Source of the DNA: an uncultured Candidatus Saccharibacteria bacterium
Lineage (GTDB): Bacteria > Patescibacteriota > Minisyncoccia > UBA6257
Assembly: GCA_964479005.1 (NCBI GenBank)
Contig: CAYZJA010000001.1
Span: 96,001 to 160,000 of the forward strand
Direction: 5' to 3'
Length of the DNA stretch: 64,000 bases
Of this stretch, positions 2,582-50,201 are shown one piece after another. How positions within the stretch are numbered: position 1 is the stretch's first letter; each line of letters opens with the position of its first letter. The notes under the pieces were generated by a model. The model did not search any database. It was not told the origin of the DNA and saw only the letters and a program-made list of their open reading frames with translations. The translations under genes and the position numbers were made by a program.

Positions 2582-2610
2582 TTGACATAAAATGCCTTAT
2601 TTGCTAAACT
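2582..2610 (+). promoter_or_regulatory. sigma70-type promoter of the str operon (TTGACA-17-TAAACT)
   Basis: TTGACA at 2582, 17-bp spacer containing TTTGCTA, -10 TAAACT, immediately upstream of rpsL. Confidence 0.4.
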
Positions 2611-2620
2611 ATTTTTTGTT

Positions 2621-3034
2621 ATGCCTACTTTACATCAATTAATTAAAAAAGGGAGAAAATCAATTGTGAAGAAGAGCAAATCAGTTGCTCTGTCTTTTTC
2701 TTTTGATACTATAAAAAATAGGCCAAGCAATCATCCATCTTCTTTTAAAAAAGGTGTTTGCTTAAAAGTTTTTACAGCAACTCCAAAAAAGCCAAACTCC
2801 GCTTTACGAAAAGTAGCTAGAGTGAAATTAAGCAATGGCATGGAAGTTACCGCATATATTCCAGGAATAGGGCATAATTTACAGGAGCACTCAATAGTCT
2901 TAGTAAGAGGTGGAAGAGTAAAAGATTTGCCAGGAGTTCGTTATCATGTAGTTCGTGGCAAACATGATATTTCTGGAGTAGATGGAAGAAAACAGCAAAG
3001 AAGTAAATATGGAACAAAAAAAGCAAAAGAATAA
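2621..3034 (+). CDS. rpsL: 30S ribosomal protein S12, with a ~15-aa internal insertion relative to E. coli
   Basis: [11 protein letters not shown]...[15 protein letters not shown]...[29 protein letters not shown]. Confidence 0.95.
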
Positions 3035-3043
3035 GCATCTATT

Positions 3044-3511
3044 ATGAGGAGAAAACATAGACAAGAAAAAGAATATGAACCAGATTTAATTTATAAAAGC
3101 GCTTTAGCGACGCGTTTTATTAATTATTTAATGAAAGATGGAAAAAAGTCAGTGGCGCAGAGAGTTCTTTATAACACAATGGAAAATATTAAAAAACAAA
3201 CTAAGCAAGATCCATTGAGTATTTTTGATTTAGCTATTAAAAATGTTTCACCAGAATTAGAAGTTAAAAGCAGAAGAATAGGAGGCGCTAATTATCAAGT
3301 TCCTCAAGCGGTTCCTGAATATAGAAAAACCACATTAGCTTGCCGTTGGATTATTAATATGGCCCGGGCTAAAAAAGGAAAAACAATGGCAGAAAGATTA
3401 GCAGAAGAATTAATTCTGGCTTCGAAAAACGAGGGAGCAGCTATAAAGAAAAAATTAGATATTCATCGTATGGCTGAGGCAAATCGCGCTTTTGCTCGTT
3501 TTCGTTTCTAA
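3044..3511 (+). CDS. rpsG: 30S ribosomal protein S7
   Basis: Conserved S7 sequence; position after rpsL. Confidence 0.95.
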
Positions 3512-3521
3512 ATTTAATATC

Positions 3522-5630: not shown

Positions 5631-5749
5631 CAATGAATTAGTTATGCCTTAATATTGTAGATACAAAGGTAATCCGCCATTTACCAGTCAGTGAAGGCGG
5701 AGAAAAATAAAAAAAACAATAAAAATAATAAAAATTAAAATTAAAAAAC

Positions 5750-6949
5750 ATGGCAGAAAAAGAGAAATTTGTTCGTGGAAAAACACATATGAATGTAGGA
5801 ACCATTGGTCATATTGATCATGGTAAAACTACCTTAACAGCAGCTATTTCACATGCGCTTCACCTGAAAGGTTTAGCGAAGAAGGCCCTTAATGTTGCTG
5901 AAATTGATAAGGCTCCTGAAGAAAAAGCCCGTGGTATTACCATTAACGTTCATCATTCCGAGTATGAAACTGAAAAAAGGCATTATGCTCATATCGATTG
6001 TCCAGGACATATTGATTATATTAAAAATATGGTCACTGGATCAGCGCAAATGGATGGCGCCATCCTAGTAGTTTCTGCTCCTGATGGCCCTATGCCGCAA
6101 ACATTTGAGCATATTCTTTTAGCTCGTCAAGTTGGAGTTCCTGCAATGGTAGTCTTTTTGAATAAAACAGACATGGTTCAGGATAAAGAATTATTGGAAT
6201 TAGTGGAAACTGAGATAAGGGAACTTTTAACTAAGAATGGTTATCCTGGAAATGATGTTCCTATAATAAAGGGATCATCTTTAAAAGCATTGGATGCTAA
6301 ATCTGTTGATGATACTGAAATAAAGCCAATATTTGAATTAATAGATGCGCTTGATTCTTATTTCCCTGATCCAGTAAGGGATACAGATAAACCATTTCTT
6401 ATGCCTATTGAAGATATATTCTCTATAGAAGGACGTGGTACTGTAGCTACTGGAAGAGTTGAAAGAGGAAGAATTAATATCAATGATGAAGTAGAAATTA
6501 TAGGATATCATCCAACAGTAAAAACTGTTGTGACTGGCCTTGAAATGTTTAATAAATCTCTTGATGAAAGCCAAGCTGGAGATAACGTAGGCGTTCTATT
6601 AAGAGGAACTAAGAAAGAAGAAATAAGGAGAGGCCAAGTATTAGCTAAGCCAGGTTCTATTACTCCTCATACAGAGTTTGAAGCAGAGGTTTATATCTTA
6701 GCCAAAGAAGAAGGCGGAAGGCATACGCCGTTCTTTAGTGGCTATAAGCCCCAATTCTTTATTCGCACAGCTGATGTTACAGGAGAAGTTACTCTTCCTG
6801 AAGGAGTAGAAATGGTTATGCCTGGCGATAATGTAAAGTTTAAAGTTAAATTAATTGCTCCAGTTGCGTTAGACGATACTTCTCGTTTTGCCATTAGAGA
6901 AGGTGGACGAACTGTAGGTGCTGGAGTTGTTACAAAAATTATAAAGTAA
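5750..6949 (+). CDS. tuf: elongation factor Tu
   Basis: [26 protein letters not shown]; 399 aa. Confidence 0.97.
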
Positions 6950-6959
6950 AGAATTTATC

Positions 6960-7286
6960 GTGCCTACTTCTAAGACCGAGATTCAACAGAAGATTAGAAT
7001 TAAAATAAAGGGCTATGATCATCGGATCCTTGACAACTCTTGTCAGCAAATTATTGAGACTGTAATGAGATATGGCAGCGAAGCTATTGGTCCAATCCCT
7101 TTGCCAACCGAAATTCATCGTTATACAGTGAATAGGGCTACTTTTGTTAAAAAGGATGCCAGGGAGCAGTTTGAAATCAGGATTCATAAAAGATTGATAG
7201 AAATTCCTAATCCTAATCAGAAAATTATTGAAGCCCTTACAAGTTTAGATTTGCCGGCAGGAGTAGATATAGAAATAAAGATGTAA
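6960..7286 (+). CDS. rpsJ: 30S ribosomal protein S10 (GTG start)
   Basis: [16 protein letters not shown]... S10 signature. Confidence 0.95.
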
Positions 7287-7299
7287 AATCAGCACAGCT

Positions 7300-7345
7300 A
7301 GTCTATAGCGGTAACCTTGAGGAAAACTGGGCTAGTGCCCAGTTT
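7300..7345 (+). promoter_or_regulatory. stable hairpin between rpsJ and rplC (AACTGGGC-tagt-GCCCAGTT followed by TTTT); possible attenuator or processing site
   Basis: 8-bp GC-rich perfect stem then U-run, inside the operon. Confidence 0.3.
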
Positions 7346-7360
7346 TTCAATGTCAAATTT

Positions 7361-7960
7361 ATGAAATTTATATTAGCTAAAAAATTGAAAATGTCGCAGG
7401 TTTTTGATAGCGAAGAAAAAGTTATTCCAGTAACTATTTTAGAGGCTGGTCCTGTTAAAATTACACAAATAAAAACCGAAGATAAAGATGGTTATGAAGC
7501 TATTCAGATTGGCTATGGGCATAAAAAAAATCAAACAAAAGCTTTGGCCGGGCACTTAAAGGATTTAGGAAAGTTTTCTTGGCTAGCAGAAATTCATGGA
7601 AAGGTTTCTGATTACAAAGTTGGTGATGAAATTAAGGTAGATATTTTTAAAGAAGGGGATAAAGTAATAGTAATAGGAAAAAGTAAGGGAAAGGGCTTTC
7701 AGGGCGTGGTTAAAAGACATGGATTTAGAGGTTCTCCTGCAAGCCACGGAACAAAAGATAGATTGAGAGCGCCTGGATCAATTGGCGCTACTGGGCTTCA
7801 TCGTGTAGTAAAGGGCAAAAAAATGGCGGGCAGAATGGGCCAGGATCAGTTGACATTAAAAAAAATAGAGGTTATAAAAGTTGATTCAGAAAAAGGTCTT
7901 CTTTATTTGAAAGGAGCTATTCCCGGCAGAAGAGGTTCATTAATAAAAGTTATGGGATAA
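7361..7960 (+). CDS. rplC: 50S ribosomal protein L3
   Basis: Sequence similarity to L3; S10 operon order. Confidence 0.95.
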   Translation: MKFILAKKLKMSQVFDSEEKVIPVTILEAGPVKITQIKTEDKDGYEAIQIGYGHKKNQTKALAGHLKDLGKFSWLAEIHGKVSDYKVGDEIKVDIFKEGDKVIVIGKSKGKGFQGVVKRHGFRGSPASHGTKDRLRAPGSIGATGLHRVVKGKKMAGRMGQDQLTLKKIEVIKVDSEKGLLYLKGAIPGRRGSLIKVMG

Positions 7961-7965
7961 AAGAT

Positions 7966-8598
7966 ATGAAAGCGCCTATTTACAATTTAAAAGGAAAGAC
8001 ATTAAAAAAGATTGAGTTATCTGAGGATATTTTTGGTAAGAAGATTAATAATAATCTTGTTCACCAGGTTTATACAAGCCTTTTAAGCAATCGACGAAAA
8101 CCATTAGCTTTTAGTAAAGACAGGTCAGAAGTGAGAGGTGGAGGAAAAAAGCCATGGAGGCAAAAAGGGACAGGAAGGGCCAGGCATGGCTCTATTCGTT
8201 CTCCTTTATGGAAAGGAGGTGGGGTGACATTTGGTCCGAGAGCAAAAGAAAGAGATTTTAAAAAGAAGATAAATAAAAAGATAAAAAAGGACGCTATTAA
8301 AATGGTTCTTTCCCAGAAGTTTAGAGATGGGGAGATTAAAATAATTGAGGATATCGATTTAAAGGAACATAAAACCAGCCAAATGGATAAATTTTTTAGA
8401 AGCCTTTTAAAAATAGAAAAGAAATTTCCAAAAGTTTTGTTTTTAATTGACTCAAAAAATGAGGTATTACGAAAGAGTGCGAAAAATCTACCCTATATTA
8501 AAATTATGAATGCTGAGAATATTGATTTGATAGAAATATTAAATAATAAATATTTGGTGATATCAAAAAATATTTTGCCAATGATAGAGATTAAGTAA
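7966..8598 (+). CDS. rplD: 50S ribosomal protein L4
   Basis: S10 operon order; L4-like sequence. Confidence 0.9.
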   Translation: MKAPIYNLKGKTLKKIELSEDIFGKKINNNLVHQVYTSLLSNRRKPLAFSKDRSEVRGGGKKPWRQKGTGRARHGSIRSPLWKGGGVTFGPRAKERDFKKKINKKIKKDAIKMVLSQKFRDGEIKIIEDIDLKEHKTSQMDKFFRSLLKIEKKFPKVLFLIDSKNEVLRKSAKNLPYIKIMNAENIDLIEILNNKYLVISKNILPMIEIK

Positions 8599-9065: not shown

Positions 9066-9898
9066 TAAAAAGATATAAACCAACAACACCATCTCGTCGC
9101 CACTATACTGTTTCTGATTATTCAGTTTTAACTAGTGAAAAGCCTTTTAAAAGACTAACTTCTTCTAAAAAAAGAAGCGTTGGGAGATCTAAAGGAAGAA
9201 TAACGGTTCGGCATAAAGGTGGCGGCAACAAGAAACTGCATAGAGAGATTGTTTTTGGCGAGCAAAAAAAAGGAGTTCCGGGAATAATAAAGACCATAGA
9301 ATATGATCCTTACCGCTCTGCATTTATCTCATTGGTATCTTATAAAGACGGCGATTGGCGCTATATTTTATCTCCACATAATTTGAAAGTTGGGGATGAA
9401 ATTATTTGTGATGAAAAAACGCCTTTTAAGAAAGGAAATAGATTGCAATTAAAAAATATTCCAGTCGGAAGCTTGATACATAATATAGAAATTAGAGTAG
9501 GCGCTGGAGGAAGACTAGCTAAGTCAGCAGGATCTTCTGCGCAAGTTATAACCCAAGATGGAAAACATACCCATCTTAAAATGCCTTCATCAGAAATAAG
9601 GAAGATATTGGATGTTTGCTATGCGTCAATTGGGCAACTTTCTAATGTTGAACATGGAATGGTAAGCATTGGAAAAGCAGGAAGGGCGCGTCATATGGGA
9701 AGAAGGCCCAAAGTAAGAGGAACGGCAATGAATCCTGTAGATCATCCATATGGTGGCGGAGAAGGAAAAACGCAAAGAGGAACAAAAAGGCCAAAAAGCA
9801 TTTATGGTAAAGTTACTGGTGGCGTAAAAACAAGAAAGAAGAAAAAATATTCTAATAAGTTTATTATAAAAAAGCGAAAGAAAAAACGTAAAAAATAA
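9062..9898 (+). CDS. rplB: 50S ribosomal protein L2 (poly-Lys C-terminal tail)
   Basis: L2 signature; ATGA overlap with rplW. Confidence 0.95.
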
Positions 9899-9902
9899 TA
9901 TT

Positions 9903-10232
9903 ATGTCTCGTTCACTAAAAAAAGGCCCATACGTTCATCCAAAATTGTTAAAGAAACTCTCCAAGATAAAGATAGGAGATAAAACTCCTATTAAAACTTG
10001 GTCTAGAGATTCAATAATTACACCAGAAATGGTTGGTTTTGTTTTCGCCGTGCATAATGGTAAAGATTTTATTGAGGTAGAAACAAGAGAAGAAATGGTT
10101 GGGCATCATTTAGGGGAATTTTCTTTAACAAGAAAGTTTTTTAAACATGGTGGAAAAATGCAAAAAGAATTGGAAGCAAAAGCAAGGGTTTCAGAAAAAA
10201 CATCAGCGTCTGCGCAAAGTGAAAAAAAATAA
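9903..10232 (+). CDS. rpsS: 30S ribosomal protein S19
   Basis: [10 protein letters not shown]... S19 signature. Confidence 0.95.
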
Positions 10233-10251
10233 ATATTTAGCAGAATAAATT

Positions 10252-10764
10252 ATGGAAGTTAAAGCCTCTTTAAAATATTTAAGAATTAGTCCTCGGAAAG
10301 TCCGATTACTCACAAATTTAATAAAAGGGCTATCTGTTAAAAGCGCAGAAGCTAATTTGCTTCATATTTCTAAGAAAAGCAGCAAGCCTTTGTTAAAATT
10401 ATTAAGATCTGCTATAGCTAATGCTAAACATAATTTTGATTTAGATAAAGACAATCTTTTTATTAGGGCTATTAGAGTAGATGAAGGGCCGGCTTTTAAG
10501 AGGTTCCGTCCTAGAGCGCGTGGAGCAGCTTATCCAATAAGAAAAAGAACCTCACATATCTTTCTTACCTTAAAGGAAATAAAAGAAAAGGAAACTAAAA
10601 CAAAAAAAGAAGTTAAAGATGTTAAACATGAGAAGGAGATAAAAGAGAAAAAAGCTCGAGTAAAAAGTTCCGCTTTTGTAAAAAAACCAGAGTTTAAAAA
10701 AGAAGAAAAAATAATAAAGAGATCTGCTCAAAAACAAAGAATATTTCGTCGTAAAGCAATTTAA
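10252..10764 (+). CDS. rplV: 50S ribosomal protein L22 with a Lys/Glu-rich C-terminal extension
   Basis: L22 core plus ~55-aa charged tail. Confidence 0.9.
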   Translation: MEVKASLKYLRISPRKVRLLTNLIKGLSVKSAEANLLHISKKSSKPLLKLLRSAIANAKHNFDLDKDNLFIRAIRVDEGPAFKRFRPRARGAAYPIRKRTSHIFLTLKEIKEKETKTKKEVKDVKHEKEIKEKKARVKSSAFVKKPEFKKEEKIIKRSAQKQRIFRRKAI

Positions 10765-36713: not shown

Positions 36714-36785
36714 GCCGGGGTAACTCAGTGGTAGAGTAGCTGTTTCGTAAACAGCAAGTCGCGAGTTCGAATCTCGCCTCCGGCT
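36714..36785 (+). tRNA. tRNA-Thr(CGU)
   Basis: Acceptor GCCGGGG/CTCCGGC; anticodon stem GCTGT/ACAGC; loop TTCGTAA; T arm GCGAG-TTCGAAT-CTCGC. Confidence 0.9.
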
Positions 36786-36843
36786 CAGTAATTTTTATTC
36801 CTTGACTTGATTTTACTTTGCTCTATAATTATGCATTAGGGTA

Positions 36844-38418: not shown

Positions 38419-38493
38419 GCGCGTGTAGCTCAGTTGGTTAGAGCGTACGATTCACATTCGTAAGGTCTCTGGTTCGAATCCAGACACGCGCAC
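38419..38493 (+). tRNA. tRNA-Val(CAC)
   Basis: Acceptor GCGCGTG/CACGCGC; D arm GCTC-AGTTGGTTA-GAGC; anticodon stem TACGA/TCGTA; loop TTCACAT; T arm TCTGG-TTCGAAT-CCAGA. Confidence 0.9.
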
Positions 38494-38610: not shown

Positions 38611-38811
38611 ATGAATAAAACCTGGTTAATCATAGCACTTGCAGTATTAGTAGTGGTTATTATTATGATCGTTCGTAGTGCAGGAGCGCCAACTGATGTT
38701 CCTGAAACAACAACTACTACTGAGGCAGTTGTAGATGAAGTTTTGCCTTTAGAAGGTGAAACAGTCGAAGATGAAGTTTCAGAAGATGAAGCAGTGGTTC
38801 CTGTTGAATAG
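38611..38811 (+). CDS. small membrane-anchored protein with a Thr-rich, acidic tail
   Basis: 66 aa; TM helix; followed by an intrinsic terminator. Confidence 0.35.
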   Translation: MNKTWLIIALAVLVVVIIMIVRSAGAPTDVPETTTTTEAVVDEVLPLEGETVEDEVSEDEAVVPVE

Positions 38812-38825
38812 ACGATTTTTAAAAA

Positions 38826-38860
38826 GACCTGTTATATTTGATATAGCAGGTCTTTTTCTT
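38826..38860 (+). terminator. rho-independent terminator
   Basis: agacctg...caggtct hairpin then ttttt. Confidence 0.6.
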
Positions 38861-38871
38861 TATACATAAAG

Positions 38872-38984
38872 TTATCCACAATGGGACTTGACAAGATTTA
38901 AATGTTTGCTATACTACGGATGCTGTCGTTTGGAAGTATTTGTTAGCTTGCTAATGGATATGGAAGAGTGGCAGCATTTTTTTA
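38872..38984 (+). ncRNA. candidate small RNA module, copy 1: TTATCCACA box, promoter TTGACA-16-TATACT (38888-38915), ~60-nt hairpin transcript ending in an intrinsic terminator
   Basis: No ORF; stem ATGCTG...CAGCAT then T7; a paralogous module sits in inverted orientation at 61018-61140. Confidence 0.45.
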
Positions 38985-39065
38985 TACTTACATAATAACA
39001 AAAGATACGAAGAATTGTCCTTCATATTTTTGATTGACTTTATTAATAAGACGTGATATAGTAAA

Positions 39066-39091
39066 AATGCTCTTAATTGAGCATTTTTTTG
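39066..39091 (+). terminator. intrinsic terminator hairpin in the 5' region upstream of the EPS module
   Basis: aatgctc-ttaatt-gagcatt then ttttttt. Confidence 0.5.
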
Positions 39092-39212
39092 TACTTTGAC
39101 ATTTAAAATATATAGCCGTAACAGGGAAAATTCTTTGTTATTGGAGATAAAAGATAGATTATTAAATGATTTGATTAGTAAAAAATAAATTTAAATAAAG
39201 GAGGAAAGAAAG

Positions 39213-39926
39213 ATGAAAAGGAAGTTAGTTATAGTTTTTGTTTTGTTTATTTTAGTGCTGAGTTTTACTCCAATTTTGAAACACTGGTCTTCAGAATGGG
39301 AATTGAATGCCCCAGTGTTATTGGATAGCGTTCAATTATCGAATGATTGCCGTATATTGTTGGGATCGTATTATTCAAGCGGGGTGATTTATCAGGATAA
39401 TTCTTTTGAATTTATTACTCATTCATCTGATGTGTTTTCTGATGTAAATGGTTTTAGGCCCTATCCTTGGGGAGGAGAAGTGTTTTCAGGAGAAATATCT
39501 TTTTTATGTTCCCTTGATAATTATACAGGATTCAGATCATTTATGATCCAGGGGAAACAGAAAGATGATCATGGCGCCATTGCTGTTCCTGGTTTACTGT
39601 CAAAACCAAATGTAGAATCAGGAGAATTATATTATCTATCGTTTTGGGTGAAATATGATATTCAAGAAGGAGGATTTAGGCTTACACAACAATTCTTTCG
39701 TAAGCAAGACAGCGAATATCCTCATTATGCTTGCTATGGTTCTTTGATTAAAGGTAATAGTAATAAACGCTGGGAGTATGTAGGTTTAATTGTTCAGGCA
39801 CCAATTGATGCTTGGAAAGGAGATCCAGTATTAGAATTGAAAGGCAAGGGATTTGTTTTAGTTGATGATGTTTATTTCGGAAAGATAGAAATAATAAAGG
39901 AGGTGAATAAAGGTGAGATTCTTTAG
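39213..39926 (+). CDS. secreted/membrane-anchored hypothetical protein, first gene of the EPS module
   Basis: Strong SD aaggagg; signal anchor; beta-rich composition. Confidence 0.4.
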   Translation: MKRKLVIVFVLFILVLSFTPILKHWSSEWELNAPVLLDSVQLSNDCRILLGSYYSSGVIYQDNSFEFITHSSDVFSDVNGFRPYPWGGEVFSGEISFLCSLDNYTGFRSFMIQGKQKDDHGAIAVPGLLSKPNVESGELYYLSFWVKYDIQEGGFRLTQQFFRKQDSEYPHYACYGSLIKGNSNKRWEYVGLIVQAPIDAWKGDPVLELKGKGFVLVDDVYFGKIEIIKEVNKGEIL

Positions 39927-41196
39927 AAAATTAGGTATTTTTTCTTTTGAGGATTTTGTCTATGCCGGTTCTACTTTTGTGCTCGCGATGTATGTCATTT
40001 GTATTCTTGTAATTACTCTTTTCCAAATAACAGGGCAATCAGTAATTTTTAGCAGCCGTTTTTCACTCTGTTCTTTGGACATTCAATTTCCTTTTTTCTT
40101 AATTATTTGCATCATCCTGATGTATTTGAGTATGTTTATCTGGATTTTTATGGGATTTGCAGGTATATTTTATAGAAAAAAGGTAGATTTGAAGCAAGAA
40201 GATGATTCTACTCTAATATCAGTTCTTATCCCTGCGCATAATGAAGAAGATGTTATAGAAGGTATTTTGGGAGATTTAGTAGCGCAAGAATATAAGAACT
40301 TAGAGATTATCGTATTAGCTCATAATTGTACTGATTCCACAATATCCAGAGCGCAATCAGTAGATGATTCAAGGATTCAAATATTGGATATAAGAACTCG
40401 TAAGTCAGGAAAAGCATTAGCCCTTAACAGAGGATTAGAAGAAGTAAAAGGAGAAATTATTGCTCTATTTGATACTGACAACAGGATAAAAGATAAAAAA
40501 TTCTTTAATCGAGCAATAGTATATTTCAGAGACGAAACCATTGATGCTATCCAAACCGAACTTGCTACAAGTAACAGATCTGCTTCTTTGTTGACTTTTC
40601 TTCAGGAAGTAGAATATGATACTTTCTCTTCAATATCCTGGCGTGGTAGGGATGTTCTAGGTCTTCCTTGTTTTTTAGCAGGAACAGGTATTTTTATCCG
40701 AACAAAAACCTTAAGAGAGATGGGTGGATGGAAAAATTCCTTGGTGGAAGATTTTGAACTTTTTACTAGATTGACTTTGGAAAAGAAGAAGATAGTTTTT
40801 GCTGATAATCTTGTTGTTTATGATGAAAAACCGCCATCTTGGAGTGGAATAATGAAACAAAGATCACGTTGGATAAAAGGTCATTTGAAGGTTACTTGGG
40901 ATAATCTAGATAAGTTTGGAAATTGGTTGGACTATATTTATCGCTTGACTCCTTTAGCTGTTTTTGCATGGTGGGCATCAAATTTCCTATACTGGTTTTA
41001 CTATCTAACTGGCCAAATTTCTATTTTTAATGTAACAGGATGGATTTGGTTAAGTTGGACTTTTGCCTTCTTTGCTCTTCCTACTTATAATAGTATAAAA
41101 AAACGCAGTTGGAAAGGGGTTTTATTTTTGCCTGTTTATTGGTTCTTTGTTTTTCACTTGCTGTGGGCAAGTTTATACAGTTTAGGAGTGAAATGA
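39913..41196 (+). CDS. processive family-2 glycosyltransferase (polysaccharide synthase; cellulose/chitin/PNAG-synthase-like) with flanking TM helices
   Basis: GT-A fold motifs LISVLIPAHNEE and DTD (LFDTDNR), processivity motif QRSRW, multiple C-terminal TM helices. Confidence 0.8.
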   Translation: MRFFRKLGIFSFEDFVYAGSTFVLAMYVICILVITLFQITGQSVIFSSRFSLCSLDIQFPFFLIICIILMYLSMFIWIFMGFAGIFYRKKVDLKQEDDSTLISVLIPAHNEEDVIEGILGDLVAQEYKNLEIIVLAHNCTDSTISRAQSVDDSRIQILDIRTRKSGKALALNRGLEEVKGEIIALFDTDNRIKDKKFFNRAIVYFRDETIDAIQTELATSNRSASLLTFLQEVEYDTFSSISWRGRDVLGLPCFLAGTGIFIRTKTLREMGGWKNSLVEDFELFTRLTLEKKKIVFADNLVVYDEKPPSWSGIMKQRSRWIKGHLKVTWDNLDKFGNWLDYIYRLTPLAVFAWWASNFLYWFYYLTGQISIFNVTGWIWLSWTFAFFALPTYNSIKKRSWKGVLFLPVYWFFVFHLLWASLYSLGVK

Positions 41197-42353
41197 AACT
41201 TAGTAGGGAAATTGTAATAACGATTATAATTTTAATCTTTTTATTGGTATCTTTATCCGAATTTGGAGCAACTTTTTATTCTTCTATATCTCAAAAGCAG
41301 AAAAGTAGTAATTATATTTACGATGAGAAAATTATAGTTATAGATGAGAAAGTTATAGAAGATGAAAGACAGGAGATAGAGAATATTCAAATCAGTTTTA
41401 GAGGAATAGATTTCTATCCTGATCCTTATCCTTATTCTACTTCAGAAGCTTTTGATGCCTTAGAACAGCTCCTTAATTTTCAGGGAATGAATTATGTCCA
41501 ATTACGTTTTTTCCTAACTCAAGATTCTCTTACTTCCAACAAAGTGGTTTATGATGAAAAACAAGATATTACTCTAGAAAGCATGATTGTTATGATTCAT
41601 CAAGCAGGAAAGAGAGTATCATTACTGCCTGATATTATCATTAAAACAGGGGATTATGTAGCTAGTCTTAGTCCTGAAGATATTGAACAATGGTTTGCTT
41701 CTTATTATGATGCTTTAATGCACTATGCTATTTTGGCGCAGACATATGATGTAGAATTATACTGTATCGGTAATGAGCTTCATTCTTTATGGATAGAGGA
41801 TCAAAAATGGAGATACATTATTGATAAACTGAGAGAGCAATACAAAGGTTTAGTCACTACTAAACTTAACTGTTGGTGGCAGGAAAAAACATTCCAAAAA
41901 GTATTAACTTATGGTTGGCTGGAAAAACTTGATTATATTGCCATTGCTCCATATTTTGATCTAACGTGGGAAAATGATCTTTCTTTAGAAGAAATAAAGA
42001 GCAGCTGGCAGAATAGTCGTCATGGACTTAATATAGTAGCAGAATTGGAAGAAATCGCTAAAAAATATAAAAAAAAGATGATTTTTTCAGAGATTGGTTA
42101 TAGAAGCATTGATGGAACTACTATTGAACCTTGGAATAGTGATTCTATAGTACCTCGTTCAGGAGGAAGTGGTAAGATTGATTTAGAAGAACAATCCTTA
42201 GCTACTCAAGCTTTATTTGATGTTTTCAAAGATAAAGATTGGTGGGGAGGAGTATTCTGGTTCTATTGGCCGACTGTTAAACCAAATGAACAAGATAAAA
42301 CATGGGCTATATGGAATAAACCAGTACAGCTGGTTATTCAAAATAATTTTTGA
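41193..42353 (+). CDS. membrane-anchored clan GH-A-like glycoside hydrolase (TIM barrel; GH5/GH113-like)
   Basis: ATGA overlap with the GT2 gene; candidate catalytic pair IGNE ... FSEIG about 140 aa apart. Confidence 0.45.
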   Translation: MKLSREIVITIIILIFLLVSLSEFGATFYSSISQKQKSSNYIYDEKIIVIDEKVIEDERQEIENIQISFRGIDFYPDPYPYSTSEAFDALEQLLNFQGMNYVQLRFFLTQDSLTSNKVVYDEKQDITLESMIVMIHQAGKRVSLLPDIIIKTGDYVASLSPEDIEQWFASYYDALMHYAILAQTYDVELYCIGNELHSLWIEDQKWRYIIDKLREQYKGLVTTKLNCWWQEKTFQKVLTYGWLEKLDYIAIAPYFDLTWENDLSLEEIKSSWQNSRHGLNIVAELEEIAKKYKKKMIFSEIGYRSIDGTTIEPWNSDSIVPRSGGSGKIDLEEQSLATQALFDVFKDKDWWGGVFWFYWPTVKPNEQDKTWAIWNKPVQLVIQNNF

Positions 42354-42355
42354 AA

Positions 42356-42390
42356 CAAAGGGGAAGATTAATCTTCCCCTTTTATTTTTT
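42356..42390 (+). terminator. rho-independent terminator
   Basis: aaaggggaaga-ttaa-tcttcccctttt then T-run. Confidence 0.65.
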
Positions 42391-42486
42391 ATAAATATAA
42401 AATATTTTTATCATTTAATTTATAAAGCCAATGAAAGAGTTGGCAAATCATTATTAATATCATATTTTACTTAATTAAGAGTGGAC

Positions 42487-42735: not shown

Positions 42736-43998
42736 ATGAAAAAAATAATAACAATTTTAAGTACTTCCCTTTTGATGTTTGCTTTTGTAACTTCAGTTTC
42801 CGCAGCAGCTCCGAATTGGAATGTCAGTGGAACATGGATGGCAGAGCATGAGTTCGGGGGGAATACTTACTCTCATGTAAACAACATTGTTCAAGCACTA
42901 GACGGTTCCCTGACGGGGACCGGAGGATGGGATGGTACGCAAAACGGCATCCCCGTTGGTACTCCTAATACATGGGAGATAACCAACGGTTCGGTTTCTG
43001 GTAACAACATTCAATTTAACTACCAATACAATACCGTCGAGTTATGCGCCAAGGATGGAGGTATTGATGCAGTAATTAATGCTGACGGTTCTATGACTGG
43101 AACATGGCATGATGATTGTGGTACTGGACGAACTGGCGCATGGACAGTCCCAGCAGGTTCCGCAGTCTATTTAAGAACTGCAGAAATTACTTCTCCAACA
43201 TCAGGAGAAGAAGTTTCGGGAATGGTTTCATTTGATGCAATACTAACTGACAAAGATGGTGATGATAGTGTTCAATGGGCAGTTCGTCAGGGTACTTGCA
43301 CTGCAGGAATAGGAACAGTGTTTGGTAATGTAGATGGTAAATCAGATATCTACACTTGGGATCATGTCAATTTCCATGCATCAGCCGATACTTCTTCCTG
43401 GGCTCCTGGAAATTACTGTTTTGTCTTTAATCCCACAGAGAGTGCTGGAGATATAGCTATTAGAGAGACACGAGAGTTTATCCTAAAAGACACTGTAGCA
43501 CCATTGGTAACGATAGAAAGTCCTAGTGAGGGTGATGTTGTTTCTGGTACAGTTGAAATTTATGGAACTGTTGTAGAATACTATATGCTAAGTCACTACA
43601 ATATCTCGGTTTATCCAGGTGATGCCGACTTTAATGATTTCAGCAAAAGAATAGCTCAAGCAACTATTTATCGCACTACGGGTTTTAGTAATGAATTAAT
43701 TTTCGCATGGGATTCAACTGGATTTGAAGATGGCGAGTATCTAATTAGATTAGCTGCTAGAGACGCTGCTGGTAATCGTAGTTATGATGGCGATGCATAT
43801 CTAGGTGGTGATGATTCACAGCATGTGATTAGAGTAACTGTGAATAATATACCAGACCTAATTGGTCCACCGATTAATAAAGATCAATGTAAAAAAGATG
43901 GTTGGAAGATATTTGATAATCCAAGTTTTAAGAATCAGGGAGATTGTGTAAGTTATGTCCAGAGTAATGAAAATGCAAAAGGAAATAAAAATAAATAA
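42736..43998 (+). CDS. secreted protein with Ig-like beta-sandwich domains (GC-richer composition)
   Basis: Signal peptide ...SVSAAAP; TVAPLVTIESPSEGDVVSGTVEIYG is Big-like; Lys-rich tail. Confidence 0.45.
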   Translation: MKKIITILSTSLLMFAFVTSVSAAAPNWNVSGTWMAEHEFGGNTYSHVNNIVQALDGSLTGTGGWDGTQNGIPVGTPNTWEITNGSVSGNNIQFNYQYNTVELCAKDGGIDAVINADGSMTGTWHDDCGTGRTGAWTVPAGSAVYLRTAEITSPTSGEEVSGMVSFDAILTDKDGDDSVQWAVRQGTCTAGIGTVFGNVDGKSDIYTWDHVNFHASADTSSWAPGNYCFVFNPTESAGDIAIRETREFILKDTVAPLVTIESPSEGDVVSGTVEIYGTVVEYYMLSHYNISVYPGDADFNDFSKRIAQATIYRTTGFSNELIFAWDSTGFEDGEYLIRLAARDAAGNRSYDGDAYLGGDDSQHVIRVTVNNIPDLIGPPINKDQCKKDGWKIFDNPSFKNQGDCVSYVQSNENAKGNKNK

Positions 43999-44023
43999 AA
44001 AATAAATAAAAAAAATAAAAAAT

Positions 44024-45772
44024 ATGAATAAACAATTATTCTCTAAAACGATTTCACTTTTCTTAGTTTTTTCTTTGGTGTTCGTAGGTGTTTCAATATT
44101 TTCACCAAATAATATTGAAGCTAAAGGACAGAAACCAAATAACAAAATATCAATTTGTCATAGAACTAGTTCTGCTACTAATCCTTGGAATGTAATTAAT
44201 GTTAGTGTTAATGCTCAAGATGCTCACTTAGCTCATGGAGATTTTCTTTATGAAGGTAGTTATCCAGTGAATTCTAAAGAAGCAGAGGAATGGTGTGGCA
44301 TGACTAGATATACTTGTAATGAAAGTACTTGGCAATGTGTAATTGATAACCAAGGTCAATATTCAAGTTATGATGATTGTTCAACTGTTTGTCAGGAACC
44401 AATGGCAACTGTAACAATTTGTAAATATGACGAAGAAAGGAATCCTTTAAGTGGATGGAAAATGATTTTGAAAGGGGATTTGCAAGACCAAGTAACTGTT
44501 TTTCCTGATGGGTCAGCATATTTGTCAGGAGATTTACCATTAGAAGATTATTTATTAATGGCTTCTGGTCAATATGTTTATAGGCCTGGAACTTTAGGGG
44601 CTGAATATTCTGATGCTGGCTATACTAAGAGGAATTGTCCAGGAGATGCTACTTATTTATGTAGTGGTCCCTATACCCCATGGTTTAATGTTTTTGATAT
44701 TATAGGTATTCATAAAGGATGGTTGGGGATTATGGTTAATGACGCCGCAACTAATTGGGGTTCTTACTTTAACTCTGCTCATACTTATGCTCTGGGATAT
44801 CCTAATTATAGTGGTTCATTATCTTTTACAATTAAAGATGATGTGTATAGTGATAATTCAGGACAATTAAATGTTGATATTTATAAAGGATATACTGGGG
44901 AGACAGATGAAAATGGTTGTATAACCTTTAATGATGTTCCTTTGGAAACTTATTCTCTTGAGGAAATTCTTAAAGATGGATGGCAAAATGTTAGTGGTTT
45001 AGGACAGATTGTTATTGATGAATCTCAAGAAACTTTTGATGTGATTAATAGTGAAATTAAAAGCGAAAAAGAACTAGCATGCATAAATTCAGGTGGCACA
45101 GTTGGAACAGGTATATGCTGCAAAAGTGTAGAAGGTTTTCCAAATGATTGTGCTACAGGAGCCTGCGGTTGTTCTGCAGGAGATAGCCATGAAGTTCAGG
45201 TTTGTAATTGTCCAGCAGGCAAATGTTTTGATGGAAATTCCTGCGTAACAAAATGTGAAGAAGGAATTAATCTTCTTAAAAACGGTAGTTTCGAATATCC
45301 GGAAGTAACTAATACAAGCAAATGGCAGTTATTTCCATCAGGGACAGCTCTACTTGAATGGGTAGTTGGATGGGTTAGCGCTGCTCCATCAGACCCTCCA
45401 ACAATTGAAATACAGAAAGGCGTAGTAGTTTCTCCTAGTAATGGACTTCAAAGCATTGAATTAGATTCAGAAGCTCCAACCTATATTTCTCAAGCAGTTA
45501 ATACAGAATCTGGCTATGGATATAAATTAAGCTTTGATTTTGCAGCCAGGCCTAATACTTCAGAAGAAGATAATAAATTAGAGGTTTGGGCTGATAGTAT
45601 TCTTAAAGATAGTATTAGCAGCAATACATCTTGGCAAACAAAAACATATAATTTTAATGCTACTTCTAACCTTACGGAAATCAAATTCGTGGATATAGGA
45701 ATTCCTAATACCGATTCAATGGGTACATTATTAGATAATGTTAAATTAGAATGTGTTCCGCCGGTTCTGTAA
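44024..45772 (+). CDS. secreted multidomain protein, shorter paralogue of the 1440-aa giant: Cys-knot module, ~210-aa prealbumin/CnaB-like tandem domain, C-terminal jelly-roll-like domain
   Basis: Signal peptide MNKQLFSKTISLFL...; the TVTICKYDEER...ETFDVIN block is >60% identical to 1440-aa residues ~810-1020; C-terminal NGSFEYPEVT...LDNVKLECVP matches NGDFESPEVT...LDNVSVRCVP. Confidence 0.5.
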   Translation: MNKQLFSKTISLFLVFSLVFVGVSIFSPNNIEAKGQKPNNKISICHRTSSATNPWNVINVSVNAQDAHLAHGDFLYEGSYPVNSKEAEEWCGMTRYTCNESTWQCVIDNQGQYSSYDDCSTVCQEPMATVTICKYDEERNPLSGWKMILKGDLQDQVTVFPDGSAYLSGDLPLEDYLLMASGQYVYRPGTLGAEYSDAGYTKRNCPGDATYLCSGPYTPWFNVFDIIGIHKGWLGIMVNDAATNWGSYFNSAHTYALGYPNYSGSLSFTIKDDVYSDNSGQLNVDIYKGYTGETDENGCITFNDVPLETYSLEEILKDGWQNVSGLGQIVIDESQETFDVINSEIKSEKELACINSGGTVGTGICCKSVEGFPNDCATGACGCSAGDSHEVQVCNCPAGKCFDGNSCVTKCEEGINLLKNGSFEYPEVTNTSKWQLFPSGTALLEWVVGWVSAAPSDPPTIEIQKGVVVSPSNGLQSIELDSEAPTYISQAVNTESGYGYKLSFDFAARPNTSEEDNKLEVWADSILKDSISSNTSWQTKTYNFNATSNLTEIKFVDIGIPNTDSMGTLLDNVKLECVPPVL

Positions 45773-45878
45773 GTTATAAATAATATCCGGCAATTACAAA
45801 AGAAAAAGTTGATAGGATTTAATGGCGAATTAACCGTTCATTTTAAATAAAAGATTAAAAAGTTAAATATATAAAAAA

Positions 45879-48800
45879 ATGAAAAAACAATTTTTCTCTA
45901 AAACATTTTCAATTTTCTTGGCACTTTCTTTTGTACTTTCTAATAGCGCAATGTTAGTGCCATTACAAGCTGAAGCTTGTGAGGAAGAAATATGCGAAGA
46001 CGTTATTGTGGTAAGTAATATAGAAGATAAGGTTTTTGATATTGCAGAAACTCTTCCCGGTGAAGCAGCTGTTCTTGCTTGGGATGATCATCCGGCATGG
46101 ACAGCGTATATTGAAGGCGCAAATTGGATTTGGAAGACAGAATATGTAGAAAATCCTGATCAAGACGAAACATATATATTTAAAAAAGATTTTGATATTG
46201 TTGGCATTCCAGATTCTGCAACATTAAAAGTTGCAACTGATAATTCGTATAGTGTTTGGGTTAACAATGTTTTGATTGGAGAAGTTATAACTGAAGATAA
46301 TCACAGTTCAACAACCCAAGATCAATATAATAATATCGTTGACTTTCATACCGGTTCAAATGAAATTAAATTTGAAGTTAAAAACTGGGCAGGAAATGCG
46401 TCACCGAAATTAAATCCTGCAGGTCTTTTGTATAGACTTGAGATTGTAAGATCTTCTTGTGAACCTCAATGTATACCTCAATCTTCTATAGAAACAGACT
46501 GTACTAATGGTTTAGATGATGACTGCGATGGTTTTATTGATAGTGAAGATTCTGATTGTCAGATGTTAATAATGGCTTCTAAAGTAATTTGTGATAATGA
46601 ATCAGATTTACCTAATTGGGGGACAGGATCTGGAGTTGACTATCCTTCATATAACATTGATCAAAACACAGCTTCGGATTATGTAGCTGAACATTCTGGT
46701 TGTTATTTAGCTTCTAATTGGTTTTTTCAATGGGGACAACAAGGTTCTGATGATTTTGGAAAAGACTTTTATGGAGAAGCTGGCAATGGCTACACTACTT
46801 TTGGGCCAACAAATGAAAATGGAGTAGCTAGTACAACAGTGGATTCTGTTACCGGTAGTTATTTGGAATTAAGGGAAGTTCTGCAGCAAGGTTATATTCC
46901 TTTTACGTATGACCAATCACATAAATCTAATGATAATAATATTTCTGCAGAATTTTATTGCCACAATGATATTCTCAATTATGATAACTGGGATTATATA
47001 AAAAATCCTCAATTAGGAATTACTCATTATTGCGTTGGATTTAATGCATTAATCGAACAAGAAGAACCAGAACCTGTTTGTGGAAATGAAATTATAGAAA
47101 CTGGTGAACAATGTGATCCACCTTCAACCACTGCTCCTAATTCTACTGATGAATATTTCTGTGACCAAAATTGTAATTTAGTTCCTATCTATCATTCTCT
47201 GGATGGTTGTCCAAAAAATCAAATCCTAGAATTTATTCAGTCTTATCAAATTCATTCAACTAGTACGACAGAAGTTATTATTCCTGTGAGTGGTAGCGAT
47301 ACATATAAGTTTGAAGTTAAAGGAACTTTTTATCCTACTCAAAATGGAAAAAATGAGAATTTCCTATCAGATGCCGCCTATACGACTGAAGATGGCTGGG
47401 TTTCAACTTCTACAAAATACGGAATTAAAGGCATACCACCTGATTATGCTGCCCATGCTTTATTAGGTGATTTAGGATTAGGGGCTGGAGTAATTAATTG
47501 GGGAGATTATGATTCTTCTCATGAATATGATTTCTCTTACACAATTCCTTCAGGCGCTACTTCTACTCAATTTGTGATAGGTGATAGATGGGATAATTGG
47601 TTTATACCAGATGATATTAGTTGGAATAATCAAGGCGGAATGAAAGATAATCTTGGAAATTTGACTTTAGATGTTTATGAGTGTAAGCCAATCCAAGCTA
47701 GATGTGATCCTAAGTTAGAATTAGTTATGAATGGCGATTTTGAGAGTCCTGAAGTGACTGATCTAGTAAAAAAATGGGGTATTTTTCCATCAGGGACAAC
47801 CGATTTAGAATGGTTAATTAATTGGAGAGAAATTTGGCCTTCAGCACCAAAAATAGCAAATCTTGAAATTCAGAAAAGTTATTATACTCCAGTAATAGCT
47901 CCTGTAGTTCCTGGAGATCCAGATCAATATGCTGAGTTAGATACTGATTGGCATGGTCCAGGTGGACCTTCTGGTGAACCAGCCTCAGTAGCTATTTCTC
48001 AAGATATTCCAACAATTATAGGGGAAACTTATAGATTAAGTTTTGATTTTTCACCACGACCATATACTGATTTAGAACAGAATCATTTAAAGGGTTTTGT
48101 TGATAGCGCTGAATTATTTGATATTTCTGCTGATGGTTCTGGTTTAACAGATACTTTATGGAATCAATATTCTGATAATTTTGTTGCTACAAGTTCAATA
48201 ACAAACATTAAATTTACTGATTATGGTACACCAGACTCTTTAGGCACTTTCTTAGATAATGTTAGCGTAAGATGTGTTCCTCAGGACGAACCTACTATGT
48301 ATCATTGTAATGAGGAATGGCAATGTATAGCAGATCCTGAAGGTGAATATAATACTGATAATTGTGACAATCAATGTATTAAACCTGGAACATCCACAGT
48401 TACTATTTGTAAATATAATGAACAAGAAGAACCTTTAAGAGGTTGGAAGATGATACTTAAAGGTGATAGGTATGATACAGTGCCTGTTTTTCCAGATGGG
48501 CAAAATTATTCTTCAAATCCTTTGCTATTAGGTGATTACTTAATTCAGGCTTCTGGTCAATATTTATATAGACCAGGAACACCTGGCGCTGAGTATTCTG
48601 ATGCTGGCTATACTAAGAGGAATTGTCCAGGAGATGCTGATTATTTATGCAGTGGAGATTATACCCCATGGTTTAATGTTTTTGATATTATAGGTATTCA
48701 TCAAGGATGGTTGGGGATTATGGTTAATGATAATCTTACTGATTGGGGGTATTTTACTTCTGACCATACTTATACTCTTGGCTATCCTGGTTATAGTGGT

Positions 48801-50201
48801 TCGTTCACTTTTACTATAAAGGATGATGTATATTCAGATAATAGTGGATCATTAACAGTTAAAATCTATAAAGGCTATGTAGGGGAAACTGGAGAAAAAG
48901 GATGTGTTACATTTAATGGTGTTCCTTATGGCGAGTATATAGTTGATGAAGATCTTCAAAGTGGTTGGATAAATCAAGATGGTTTAGGAAATGTTACAGT
49001 AGATGACCTAGAAGAAACATTTGATGTTGTCAATATTCCACCAGAAGGACAGATAGGTTCTTTAACTGTTTGTAAATATAGAGATCACGAACCATTTGGG
49101 GAATACAATACAGGTATTGATACACCTCTAACTTGGGAGATGAGAATTATTGGACCTAATAGTTATGATCAATTGTACGAAACTGATCCTCAGAATGGAT
49201 GCAAAACAATAAATAATTTAGAATATGGCCAATATGTAGTTTCTGAAGAATTGAAGATTGGTTGGGATCAAACTTATCCTCTTGATCCTAATACCCATAC
49301 CATTGATATAAATGGCGGTAATTCTAATCCATCAGTATATTTCTTGAATTATAAAACAATTGATAATGGTGGAACAAAATATGCTTGTAATGCAGAAGGG
49401 CAATGTATAGAAAATGAAGGGGGTAATTATACCACTTCTAATTGTGATGAAGAATGTAGACCATATCCATATACTTGTAATTCATCTACCTCAGAATGTG
49501 TACGTGATGTTCATGGCCAATTTGGTTTATTGCAAGGTTGTGAGGATGCTTGTAGGGTATCTACTCCATTAGGAGGTCAATATGCAATATTGGGAACAGT
49601 TTTGGGTGCTGCTACTGAAAAGGAAGAAGAACCTTGCGGTCTTTATCTTTTGGAATACATAAAGCTTGGAGGTGATAATAATCCTGAGGAAGTGAAGAAA
49701 TTACAATATTTCTTAAATGAATATCTTGGCATTAATTTAGAGATAACAGGAGTTTATAATCAAGCTACTTATCAAGAAGTTATGAGATTCCAGCTTCTTT
49801 TGAACGATGAAATTTTGGCTCCTTGGGTTGAAGTTAATTGTCTTCCATCTAGTAATATAGCTACTGGTTATGTTTATCGAACAACACAATGGAAAATAAA
49901 TATGATTGTTTGTCCAGAATTGAACCTTCCAGTACCGAATTTATATGATGAAACTTGTAAATATATTAGTCTATATCCAGGAGAAGGTGTAGTTGCTGGA
50001 GCAGCTACTTCTACAGTGGGTGGAACTAATGGAACTACCACAACTACCTCAACTACAACTCCTGAAACAATAGGAGATACTACAACAACTGTTCCTCAAG
50101 ATACTGGGGATGAGCAGTCACAAAATTGGATTTGGGTTTTGATTGGACTTTTAGTGATTGGCGGCGCAGCTTATTTGGTTTATCAAACTAGACAAGTATA
50201 A
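45879..50201 (+). CDS. giant (1440 aa) cell-surface protein: signal peptide, Cys-rich Myxococcus-type repeats (CGNEIIETGEQCD), a metal-binding-like CTNGLDDDCDGFIDSEDSDC, two prealbumin/CnaB-like blocks, a jelly-roll-like domain, a PG_binding_1-like domain, a Thr-rich linker and a C-terminal TM anchor
   Basis: Motifs read directly; C-terminus ...TTTTSTTTPETIGDTTTT...NWIWVLIGLLVIGGAAYLVYQTRQV. Confidence 0.55.
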   Translation: MKKQFFSKTFSIFLALSFVLSNSAMLVPLQAEACEEEICEDVIVVSNIEDKVFDIAETLPGEAAVLAWDDHPAWTAYIEGANWIWKTEYVENPDQDETYIFKKDFDIVGIPDSATLKVATDNSYSVWVNNVLIGEVITEDNHSSTTQDQYNNIVDFHTGSNEIKFEVKNWAGNASPKLNPAGLLYRLEIVRSSCEPQCIPQSSIETDCTNGLDDDCDGFIDSEDSDCQMLIMASKVICDNESDLPNWGTGSGVDYPSYNIDQNTASDYVAEHSGCYLASNWFFQWGQQGSDDFGKDFYGEAGNGYTTFGPTNENGVASTTVDSVTGSYLELREVLQQGYIPFTYDQSHKSNDNNISAEFYCHNDILNYDNWDYIKNPQLGITHYCVGFNALIEQEEPEPVCGNEIIETGEQCDPPSTTAPNSTDEYFCDQNCNLVPIYHSLDGCPKNQILEFIQSYQIHSTSTTEVIIPVSGSDTYKFEVKGTFYPTQNGKNENFLSDAAYTTEDGWVSTSTKYGIKGIPPDYAAHALLGDLGLGAGVINWGDYDSSHEYDFSYTIPSGATSTQFVIGDRWDNWFIPDDISWNNQGGMKDNLGNLTLDVYECKPIQARCDPKLELVMNGDFESPEVTDLVKKWGIFPSGTTDLEWLINWREIWPSAPKIANLEIQKSYYTPVIAPVVPGDPDQYAELDTDWHGPGGPSGEPASVAISQDIPTIIGETYRLSFDFSPRPYTDLEQNHLKGFVDSAELFDISADGSGLTDTLWNQYSDNFVATSSITNIKFTDYGTPDSLGTFLDNVSVRCVPQDEPTMYHCNEEWQCIADPEGEYNTDNCDNQCIKPGTSTVTICKYNEQEEPLRGWKMILKGDRYDTVPVFPDGQNYSSNPLLLGDYLIQASGQYLYRPGTPGAEYSDAGYTKRNCPGDADYLCSGDYTPWFNVFDIIGIHQGWLGIMVNDNLTDWGYFTSDHTYTLGYPGYSGSFTFTIKDDVYSDNSGSLTVKIYKGYVGETGEKGCVTFNGVPYGEYIVDEDLQSGWINQDGLGNVTVDDLEETFDVVNIPPEGQIGSLTVCKYRDHEPFGEYNTGIDTPLTWEMRIIGPNSYDQLYETDPQNGCKTINNLEYGQYVVSEELKIGWDQTYPLDPNTHTIDINGGNSNPSVYFLNYKTIDNGGTKYACNAEGQCIENEGGNYTTSNCDEECRPYPYTCNSSTSECVRDVHGQFGLLQGCEDACRVSTPLGGQYAILGTVLGAATEKEEEPCGLYLLEYIKLGGDNNPEEVKKLQYFLNEYLGINLEITGVYNQATYQEVMRFQLLLNDEILAPWVEVNCLPSSNIATGYVYRTTQWKINMIVCPELNLPVPNLYDETCKYISLYPGEGVVAGAATSTVGGTNGTTTTTSTTTPETIGDTTTTVPQDTGDEQSQNWIWVLIGLLVIGGAAYLVYQTRQV

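Follow-up and report, generated by a model that had tools for sequence, protein, structure and literature searches.

The stretch of DNA analysed here (contig CAYZJA010000001.1, positions 96,001 to 160,000; 64,000 nucleotides (nt) with a G+C content of ~32%, hereafter the window) carries on its forward strand a compact cassette of three genes (Table 1). The first, open reading frame 1 (ORF1), encodes a small anchored protein that resembles a carbohydrate-binding module (CBM), the second a membrane glycosyltransferase of family 2 (GT2), and the third a membrane-anchored glycoside hydrolase of family 113 (GH113). All three were located where the preliminary description of this DNA had placed them, at 39213-42353. 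ORF1 and GT2 overlap by 14 nt, the GTG start of the latter lying seven bases downstream of its Shine-Dalgarno sequence, AGGAGGTGA, and the TGA stop of GT2 overlaps the ATG of GH113 as ATGA. The dozens of homologues, together with pairwise ratios of non-synonymous to synonymous substitution (dN/dS) of 0.09-0.30, indicate that these are real genes and not chance reading frames. An intrinsic-terminator-like hairpin that begins 4 nt past the GH113 stop likely marks the end of the operon. As the closest relatives carry the label Candidatus Pacebacteria/Paceibacterota, attribution to the Candidate Phyla Radiation (CPR) is reasonable. On the evidence set out below, we favour, with confidence a little above the midpoint, the view that the cassette is a minimal synthase-dependent surface-glycan operon of a Paceibacteria-type (CPR) bacterium, in which the synthase is probably impaired in this particular genome.

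Table 1. Coordinates of the cassette and its features within the window
Feature	Position	Strand	Remarks
Promoter-like match TTGACT-17-TATAGT, with TG	39034..39062	+	Consensus match only; tentative
ORF1	39213..39926	+	237 amino acids (aa); ATG start behind AAAGGAGG
GT2 membrane glycosyltransferase	39913..41196	+	427 aa; GTG start
GT2 D141, NCTD motif	40333..40335	+	Invariant in alignments A1 and A2; checked by translation
GT2 DxD, D187-T-D189	40471..40479	+	Aligns to BcsA FDAD; invariant in A1, at least 90% in wider set A2
GT2 E279-D280, BcsA TED equivalent	40747..40752	+	D280, putative catalytic base
GT2 QRSRW, residues 316-320	40858..40872	+	In predicted interface helix
GT2 Leu416 codon	41158..41160	+	Trp in at least 90% of relatives (FHWLW); within 47-aa stretch of raised dN/dS
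Deletion junction GAAAT	41190..41194	+	From DNA alignment with closest relative, L005
GH113 glycoside hydrolase	41193..42353	+	386 aa; start ATG 41193
GH113 N194-E195	41772..41777	+	E195, putative acid/base; aligns with AaManA Glu151
GH113 E300	42090..42092	+	Putative nucleophile; aligns with AaManA Glu231
Terminator-like hairpin and T-tract	42357..42392 (hairpin 42357-42382)	+	11-bp stem, 5 GC pairs

The GT2 protein displays the motifs of the GT-A domain of processive family 2 synthases: D141, which putatively contributes to nucleotide binding, DxD, E279-D280 and QRSRW were all confirmed by translation and are conserved throughout the family. Hydropathy analysis identified two transmembrane (TM) segments on either side of the catalytic domain (residues 21-39, 61-79, 371-389 and 403-426), and the signature and flanking helices described previously were thus borne out. 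The protein matches Glyco_tranf_2_3 in Pfam (6.9e-28) but belongs to neither of two synthase families in NCBIfam, as its best model, the PgaC_IcaA equivalog (TIGR03937), scored 101.3 bits against a cutoff of 422.3, and CelA (TIGR03030), the cellulose synthase catalytic subunit, 39.4 bits against 699.1. Neither a Pfam scan nor the structure model revealed a PilZ or other C-terminal domain. BcsA was the best sequence match in the PDB (1.6e-10, identity ~17%), its DxD, TED and QRGRW aligning with the corresponding GT2 motifs. Structural modelling was carried out on P0002, a full-length homologue of 456 aa that is 92% identical to the window protein (pLDDT 90.3, pTM 0.89). From the N terminus the model comprises a pair of TM helices, the GT-A domain, the QRSRW-bearing interface helix, a second TM pair, then an amphipathic helix at ~400-425 and a short tail; it puts a membrane helix at 346-365, and the segment at ~400-425 is read from it as an interface helix. 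From the distribution of positive charge, the GT-A domain and the C-terminal tail are placed in the cytoplasm. When the model was compared with known structures using Foldseek, BcsA ranked first (E 5e-16, TMq 0.63), followed by PcManGT, a mannosyltransferase, and hyaluronan synthases (HAS).

It could be argued from these data that GT2 is a non-processive or oligomer-forming, lipid-directed glycosyltransferase, which assembles a polyprenyl-phosphate glycan or a membrane lipid at the cytoplasmic face while ORF1 and GH113 act outside. The 2+2 TM and interface helices of the model are fewer than in BcsA or HAS, and PcManGT, a top structure match, is not a known polymer exporter. Structural alignment with BcsA and HAS, however, extends over more residues (372 and 356, respectively) and includes the TM region. 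The GT2 family also possesses an additional pair of TM helices at its N terminus and, after interface helix 3 (IF3), a conserved Trp motif of a type found in the polymer synthases HAS and chitin synthase, and is obligately linked to a CBM-like protein and an endo-type hydrolase, which are even fused together in some relatives, an arrangement typical of polymer systems. We thus regard the lipid-directed alternative as unlikely, and infer that the GT2 enzymes of this family are probably processive and export their product.

The third gene was assigned with confidence by its family profile. It matches Pfam PF22612 (1.6e-37; 129.9 bits against a cutoff of 27) over positions 12-276 of 289 and is a member of the family, as are all 49 of its homologues, and residues 81-383 align with the mannanase AaManA (4cd6/3civ) at 1e-19. 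The N194-E195 and E300 residues are invariant in 43 GH113 family members, and every conserved residue is retained in the window copy. The preliminary description had proposed a TM-anchored TIM-barrel protein with an NE...E catalytic pair; the protein is indeed a GH113 enzyme (clan GH-A) in which this pair aligns with the catalytic glutamates of AaManA. Its single N-terminal TM helix (residues 7-25) places the barrel outside the cell.

Following an N-terminal hydrophobic anchor or signal (residues 4-22, from hydropathy), ORF1 is predicted to fold into an extracytoplasmic CBM-type beta-jelly-roll (CBM4/9/22-like) that corresponds to the fold of known CBMs. The protein had been described as secreted; export is consistent with the N-terminal segment, but we read the latter as a membrane anchor. 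The score against CBM_4_9 in Pfam (E 0.11; 13.3 bits against a cutoff of 25.9) gives ORF1 no membership of a defined CBM family, and NCBIfam returned no match. The family amounts to 40 clusters among 1.84 billion representatives, its most conserved motif being SFEF...DxFSDxNGxRPxPWGGE (residues 64-89), and the conserved residues are all kept in the window copy. Fusion of an ORF1 domain to GH113 in two relatives, described below, points indirectly to glycan binding. The same type of jelly roll also occurs inside P0197, a giant RHS-repeat protein of 3042 aa with Laminin_G_3 and PA14 domains, and in several proteins of 700-900 aa without Pfam matches. The domain is therefore a mobile module that is not confined to the cassette.

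The ORF1-GT2-GH113 trio, with overlapping genes, recurs in L001-L009, L012/13, L096 and L097/98. These contigs include a syntenic Paceibacteria group (L001-L003 and L005-L009), a more distant lineage in which GT2 is 44% identical to the window protein (L012/13), and contigs in which the trio lies amid quite different neighbours (L096, L097/98); indeed the flanking genes differ between most contig groups. In L099/L100 the gene for a 443-aa GT2 overlaps the next gene by 4 nt, and the 631-aa product of the latter is a fusion of the ORF1 domain with GH113. The GH113 protein of L004 carries an N-terminal carbohydrate esterase family 4 (CE4) deacetylase domain with an intact D-H-H triad (D62-D63 and H116...H120), which mirrors the deacetylase plus hydrolase layout of PgaB. 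Among the contigs examined the full trio was confined to bacteria of the CPR type, and an hmmsearch for ORF1 and GH113 beside the archaeal GT2 relatives (L010 and L014; 35-40% identity) was negative. Two unannotated neighbours in L014 (305 aa and 528 aa) had no Pfam or NCBIfam match. When contigs were scanned with the GT2 alignment, the matches listed were relatives of at most 33% identity, and among these only L092 had a GH113 gene nearby. In L012 the trio is preceded at ~1.1 kb by a sulfotransferase gene (PF00685; 3980-4867) and followed at ~1.2 kb by a gene for a Polysacc_deac_2 (PF04748) protein (9744-10607), a possible sign that this lineage modifies its polymer further.

This linkage bears on the view that the module is mainly catabolic, such that a surface GH113 mannanase and a CBM scavenge host or environmental beta-mannan and GT2 is an unrelated neighbour. 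CPR bacteria are generally considered to rely on substrates from outside, and the solved GH113 enzymes that match the third gene product are beta-1,4-mannanases. GT2, however, is always found between, or directly upstream of, ORF1 and GH113, in overlapping frames, in several genomic contexts and also where its two partners are fused into a single gene. Furthermore, no sugar transporter or downstream mannose-catabolism gene travels with the cassette in the contexts compared. We therefore consider a scavenging role very improbable.

Although the cassette is conserved, its synthase is incomplete in the window. In an alignment of 30 homologues the GT2 proteins are 430-465 aa in length, and all run beyond the last window residue with the sequence S-W-x-x-T-K-T-x-H-x-G; relatives with near-full coverage contain 438-472 aa, against 427 aa in the window. 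When the first 75 matches were checked, a W-x-x-(T/S)-K-T-x-H-type motif was present in 74 of 74 full-length proteins, ranging from CPR bacteria to archaea, the exception being a 276-aa fragment. Only the window protein, which stops four residues short of the motif, and its L006 counterpart lack it. Alignment with the closest relative, L005, showed that exactly 80 nt are missing, between two GAAAT repeats, and that with them the last ~29 GT2 codons (SWQETKTVHFG...) and the ancestral Shine-Dalgarno sequence of GH113 were lost. The deletion leaves GTG AAA TGA and thus creates the ATGA stop/start overlap. This overlap, which the preliminary description had reported correctly, is consequently a product of the deletion and not an ancestral design feature; the families, the pairing of synthase with hydrolase and their conserved linkage stand, but the tail of the synthase is gone. 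The same 427-aa gene occurs in L006 (JGI sample 3300005782), which is 99.98% identical over 10.5 kb; the deletion is thus likely to be genuine, even if independence of the two assemblies is not assured. Rescue by stop read-through or an alternative code was considered and rejected, as only 'NLVGKL' precedes a TAA beyond the TGA and the motif is not restored. A separate irregularity was seen in L005 itself, where GH113 (P0125, 377 aa; 2492-3625) has a divergent and shorter C terminus, …EQDSFFINIKYFII in place of …EQDKTWAIWNKPVQLVIQNNF, an apparent frameshift or deletion at the 3' end of the gene, and different populations seem to carry different cassette lesions.

The position of the lost tail suggests what it does. 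In cellulose synthases IF3 is followed by a gating loop, FxVTxK, which reaches into the active site and on which catalysis depends (PMC10592267), and WGTR/KG is its counterpart in hyaluronan and chitin synthases (PMC10592267). Replacement of W454 in the WGTRG motif of the hyaluronan synthase CvHAS abolished function (PMC11750622). A phmmer search of the PDB with the C-terminal 161 aa of GT2 returned no match, and only a profile of that region, representing the C-terminal half of the family, could be aligned to CvHAS, up to residue 448. The conserved Trp of the family falls within ~2 residues of CvHAS W454, directly past the IF3-equivalent helix. From position and motif type, the W-x-x-T-K-T-x-H tail may thus be the gating loop of the family. 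The family as a whole plausibly possesses this conserved element, and the window copy does not. The window protein has also changed at two conserved positions (W416L and S84G), and over its last 47 aa dN/dS is 0.30-0.33, against 0.08 in the control pair L005-L007. These are signs of local decay, and back a functional effect of the truncation. We infer that such an effect exists: GT2 probably has little or no activity left, while ORF1 and GH113 seem undamaged, and the cassette may not be working in this genome.

The opposite view is that the cassette is fully functional, the C-terminal motif being regulatory, dispensable or replaced by another component. What remains of GT2 is intact and contains all the catalytic motifs, whole-gene dN/dS is 0.17-0.19, indicating purifying selection, and ORF1 and GH113 keep every conserved residue. 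The allele is, moreover, shared with a second contig, and after the deletion an AGGAG remains 4 nt ahead of the GH113 start codon. Purifying selection outside the tail implies that the truncation could be tolerated or very recent. It should be emphasized, however, that the motif is universal in full-length relatives from CPR bacteria to archaea, that the equivalent loops are essential in BcsA, CesA8 and CvHAS (PMC11750622, PMC10592267), and that a near-invariant Trp has been lost and dN/dS raised beside the deletion. Full function despite the truncation is thus doubtful, if the most serious of the objections to an impaired synthase.

In the synthase-dependent operon that we favour, the cytoplasmic GT-A domain of GT2 would polymerize sugar from a housekeeping nucleotide sugar, and the membrane enzyme would pass the chain outside in the manner of BcsA, HAS or PgaC. 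ORF1, held by its single N-terminal helix, would bind the emerging polymer through its jelly roll. The N-terminally anchored GH113 would then trim or release the chain, as do BcsZ, PssZ and the hydrolase domain of PgaB. Given that GT2 itself contributes no more than four TM helices, the export path may be completed with the help of the single anchor helix of ORF1, of GH113 or of both. In the window genome, an 80-nt slippage-type deletion removed the tail of the synthase that is equivalent in position to the gating loop. Several observations weigh against this scheme. A channel may require more than four TM helices, and QxxRW is also present in non-processive GT2 and GT21 enzymes. The alignment with HAS ends at residue 448, 6 residues before WGTRG, so that the equivalence is one of position and motif resemblance, and pLDDT in the tail of the model is 61-86. 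The selective constraint on the truncated gene and its intact catalytic motifs, discussed above, count likewise in the opposite direction. We found no characterized member of the GT2 clade, the GH113 clade or the ORF1 family, and the hints to the polymer, which are taken from relatives with 39-68% identity, could be misleading.

The nature of the polymer can be approached only through these relatives, as none of the hints comes from the window. The CE4 fusion in L004 suggests an acetylated sugar and, by extension, that the GH113 substrate may be acetylated. In L010, a Thermofilum sp. metagenome-assembled genome, the GT2 homologue P0034 (39% identity) lies between a wecC-like dehydrogenase gene and a bona fide wecB (424 bits on TIGR00236) at 5160-8354, an arrangement suggestive of UDP-ManNAc or UDP-ManNAcA. 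P0034 overlaps both genes; the upstream one encodes a 284-aa nucleotide-sugar dehydrogenase whose best match is UDP-ManNAc dehydrogenase, apparently without the C-terminal domain, and an IS605 OrfB/TnpB element is located 2-4 kb upstream. No nucleotide-sugar gene travels with the CPR cassette in the neighbourhoods compared, which suggests a housekeeping donor. The best-scoring family model of GT2 is PgaC_IcaA, and the solved GH113 structures, as noted, are of enzymes that cleave beta-mannan. Taken together, a beta-linked N-acetylhexosamine chain based on GlcNAc or ManNAc would be the most likely polymer, with beta-mannan or glucomannan in second place. The most elaborate version of our interpretation, an as yet undescribed minimal exopolysaccharide (EPS) system in CPR bacteria with a monoderm envelope that makes a beta-N-acetylhexosamine polymer (poly-beta-ManNAc-, poly-N-acetylglucosamine (PNAG)- or chitin-like), completes export with its anchors, serves host attachment and is represented here by a loss-of-function allele, is speculative and, as a whole, distinctly unlikely. 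Were it true, the gating-loop deletion would be a natural loss-of-function allele in a lineage that gave up its polymer.

Regulation of the cassette was explored in the 5' intergenic region. Promoter-like matches in the 400 nt upstream of ORF1 numbered 21, against 20.0 expected from shuffled sequence. Two strong matches stand out within 38812-39212, one at 38888-38915 (11/12, with TG) and the other listed in Table 1, the latter followed directly by a hairpin and T-tract (39063-39088); these elements could belong to a leader/attenuator or to a small RNA. When this 5' intergenic sequence was scanned against Rfam, no riboswitch or leader was found, tRNA-Val being the sole match, and control by a riboswitch of the cyclic di-GMP (c-di-GMP) type is accordingly unsupported. 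Shortly upstream are the genes for ribosomal proteins L10 and L7/L12, flanked by tRNA-Thr(CGU) (36714-36786) and tRNA-Val(CAC) (38419-38493). Between these and the cassette, a 66-aa ORF (38611-38811) encodes an N-terminal TM helix and a highly acidic Thr/Glu/Val-rich tail, with a weak DUF948 match only; counterparts of 65-74 aa occupy the same place in L001 and L007. Directly downstream of the cassette (42736-50201) are three large secreted or surface proteins of 420 aa (Big_7), 582 aa (DUF642 and SpaA) and 1440 aa (DUF642, SpaA, PG_binding_1 and a C-terminal TM helix). A segment of ~640 nt is duplicated between the genes for the latter two, with 76% identity (44408-45042 and 48396-49027). DUF642 surface proteins are likewise found 3' of the cassette in L007.

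Synthase-dependent exopolysaccharide systems, such as those for cellulose, PNAG, Pel, alginate and Listeria Pss, play a central part in attachment and in the formation of biofilms, and the epibiotic lifestyle of CPR/Patescibacteria relies on surface contact. To our knowledge, no such system has been described for these organisms, and our literature searches found no description of the cassette, including any combination of GH113 with a synthase or EPS or any cellulose-synthase-like system in CPR bacteria. The cassette would rank among the smallest synthase-dependent systems; with it, GH113 would join the hydrolases that synthases have recruited, and a new family of CBM-like proteins would be defined. 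A four-helix synthase with a C-terminal gating loop could, in addition, provide a tractable minimal model of coupled polymerization and export. The window also offers a more general caution. Annotation pipelines would report its GT2 as intact, yet the protein lacks a motif that is universal in its family, and synthesis of the polymer should therefore not be taken for granted in reconstructions of surface structures and metabolism.

Functionally the cassette resembles the synthase plus hydrolase systems Bcs, Ccs, Pga and Pss. With Bcs and Ccs (BcsA-BcsB-BcsZ and clostridial CcsA/CcsB/CcsZ) it shares the GT2 motifs D, DxD, (T)ED and QxxRW, a carbohydrate-binding partner held outside the cytoplasm on one TM anchor, and a dedicated endo-glycanase; in both sequence and structure, BcsA is one of the closest matches to its synthase. 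In contrast with Bcs, however, the cassette contains no PilZ domain or c-di-GMP module, its GT2 has 4 TM helices rather than 8, the family motif W-x-x-T-K-T-x-H is at the extreme C terminus whereas FxVTxK is internal, and the hydrolase is from GH113, not GH8 or GH5. ORF1 consists of just one small CBM-like domain with an N-terminal anchor and has no detectable similarity to BcsB. The GT2 enzymes of PNAG systems (PgaABCD/IcaADBC) are alike in size (about 430-460 aa) and have a similarly split TM layout, but the cassette lacks a small PgaD/IcaD-like partner and a PgaA porin, in keeping with the monoderm-type envelope that we presume, its hydrolase domain is GH113 and not GH153, and CE4 is absent from the window. 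Class I hyaluronan synthase and chitin synthase also count among the closest known systems. The structural relative PcManGT (PDB 6YV7), a 346-residue GT2 mannosyltransferase from Pyrobaculum calidifontis, has been reported as an enzyme of an N-glycan pathway and not as a polymer exporter, and sequence similarity to the cassette GT2 was detected in the N-terminal half of GT-A only. Similarly, AaManA from Alicyclobacillus acidocaldarius (PDB 3CIV/4CD6) shares with the cassette hydrolase its Pfam family, TIM-barrel fold and both catalytic glutamates, but the cassette enzyme is distant (E ~1e-19), membrane-anchored, extracytoplasmic and coupled to a synthase. Given this distance, anchoring and coupling, and its occasional fusion to CE4 or the ORF1 domain, its substrate may not be plain mannan. 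The cassette is thus set apart from Bcs, Ccs, Pga and Pss by a synthase that scores below all curated family cutoffs, its four TM helices and C-terminal motif, a GH113 hydrolase, a new CBM-like partner and the absence of a c-di-GMP module.

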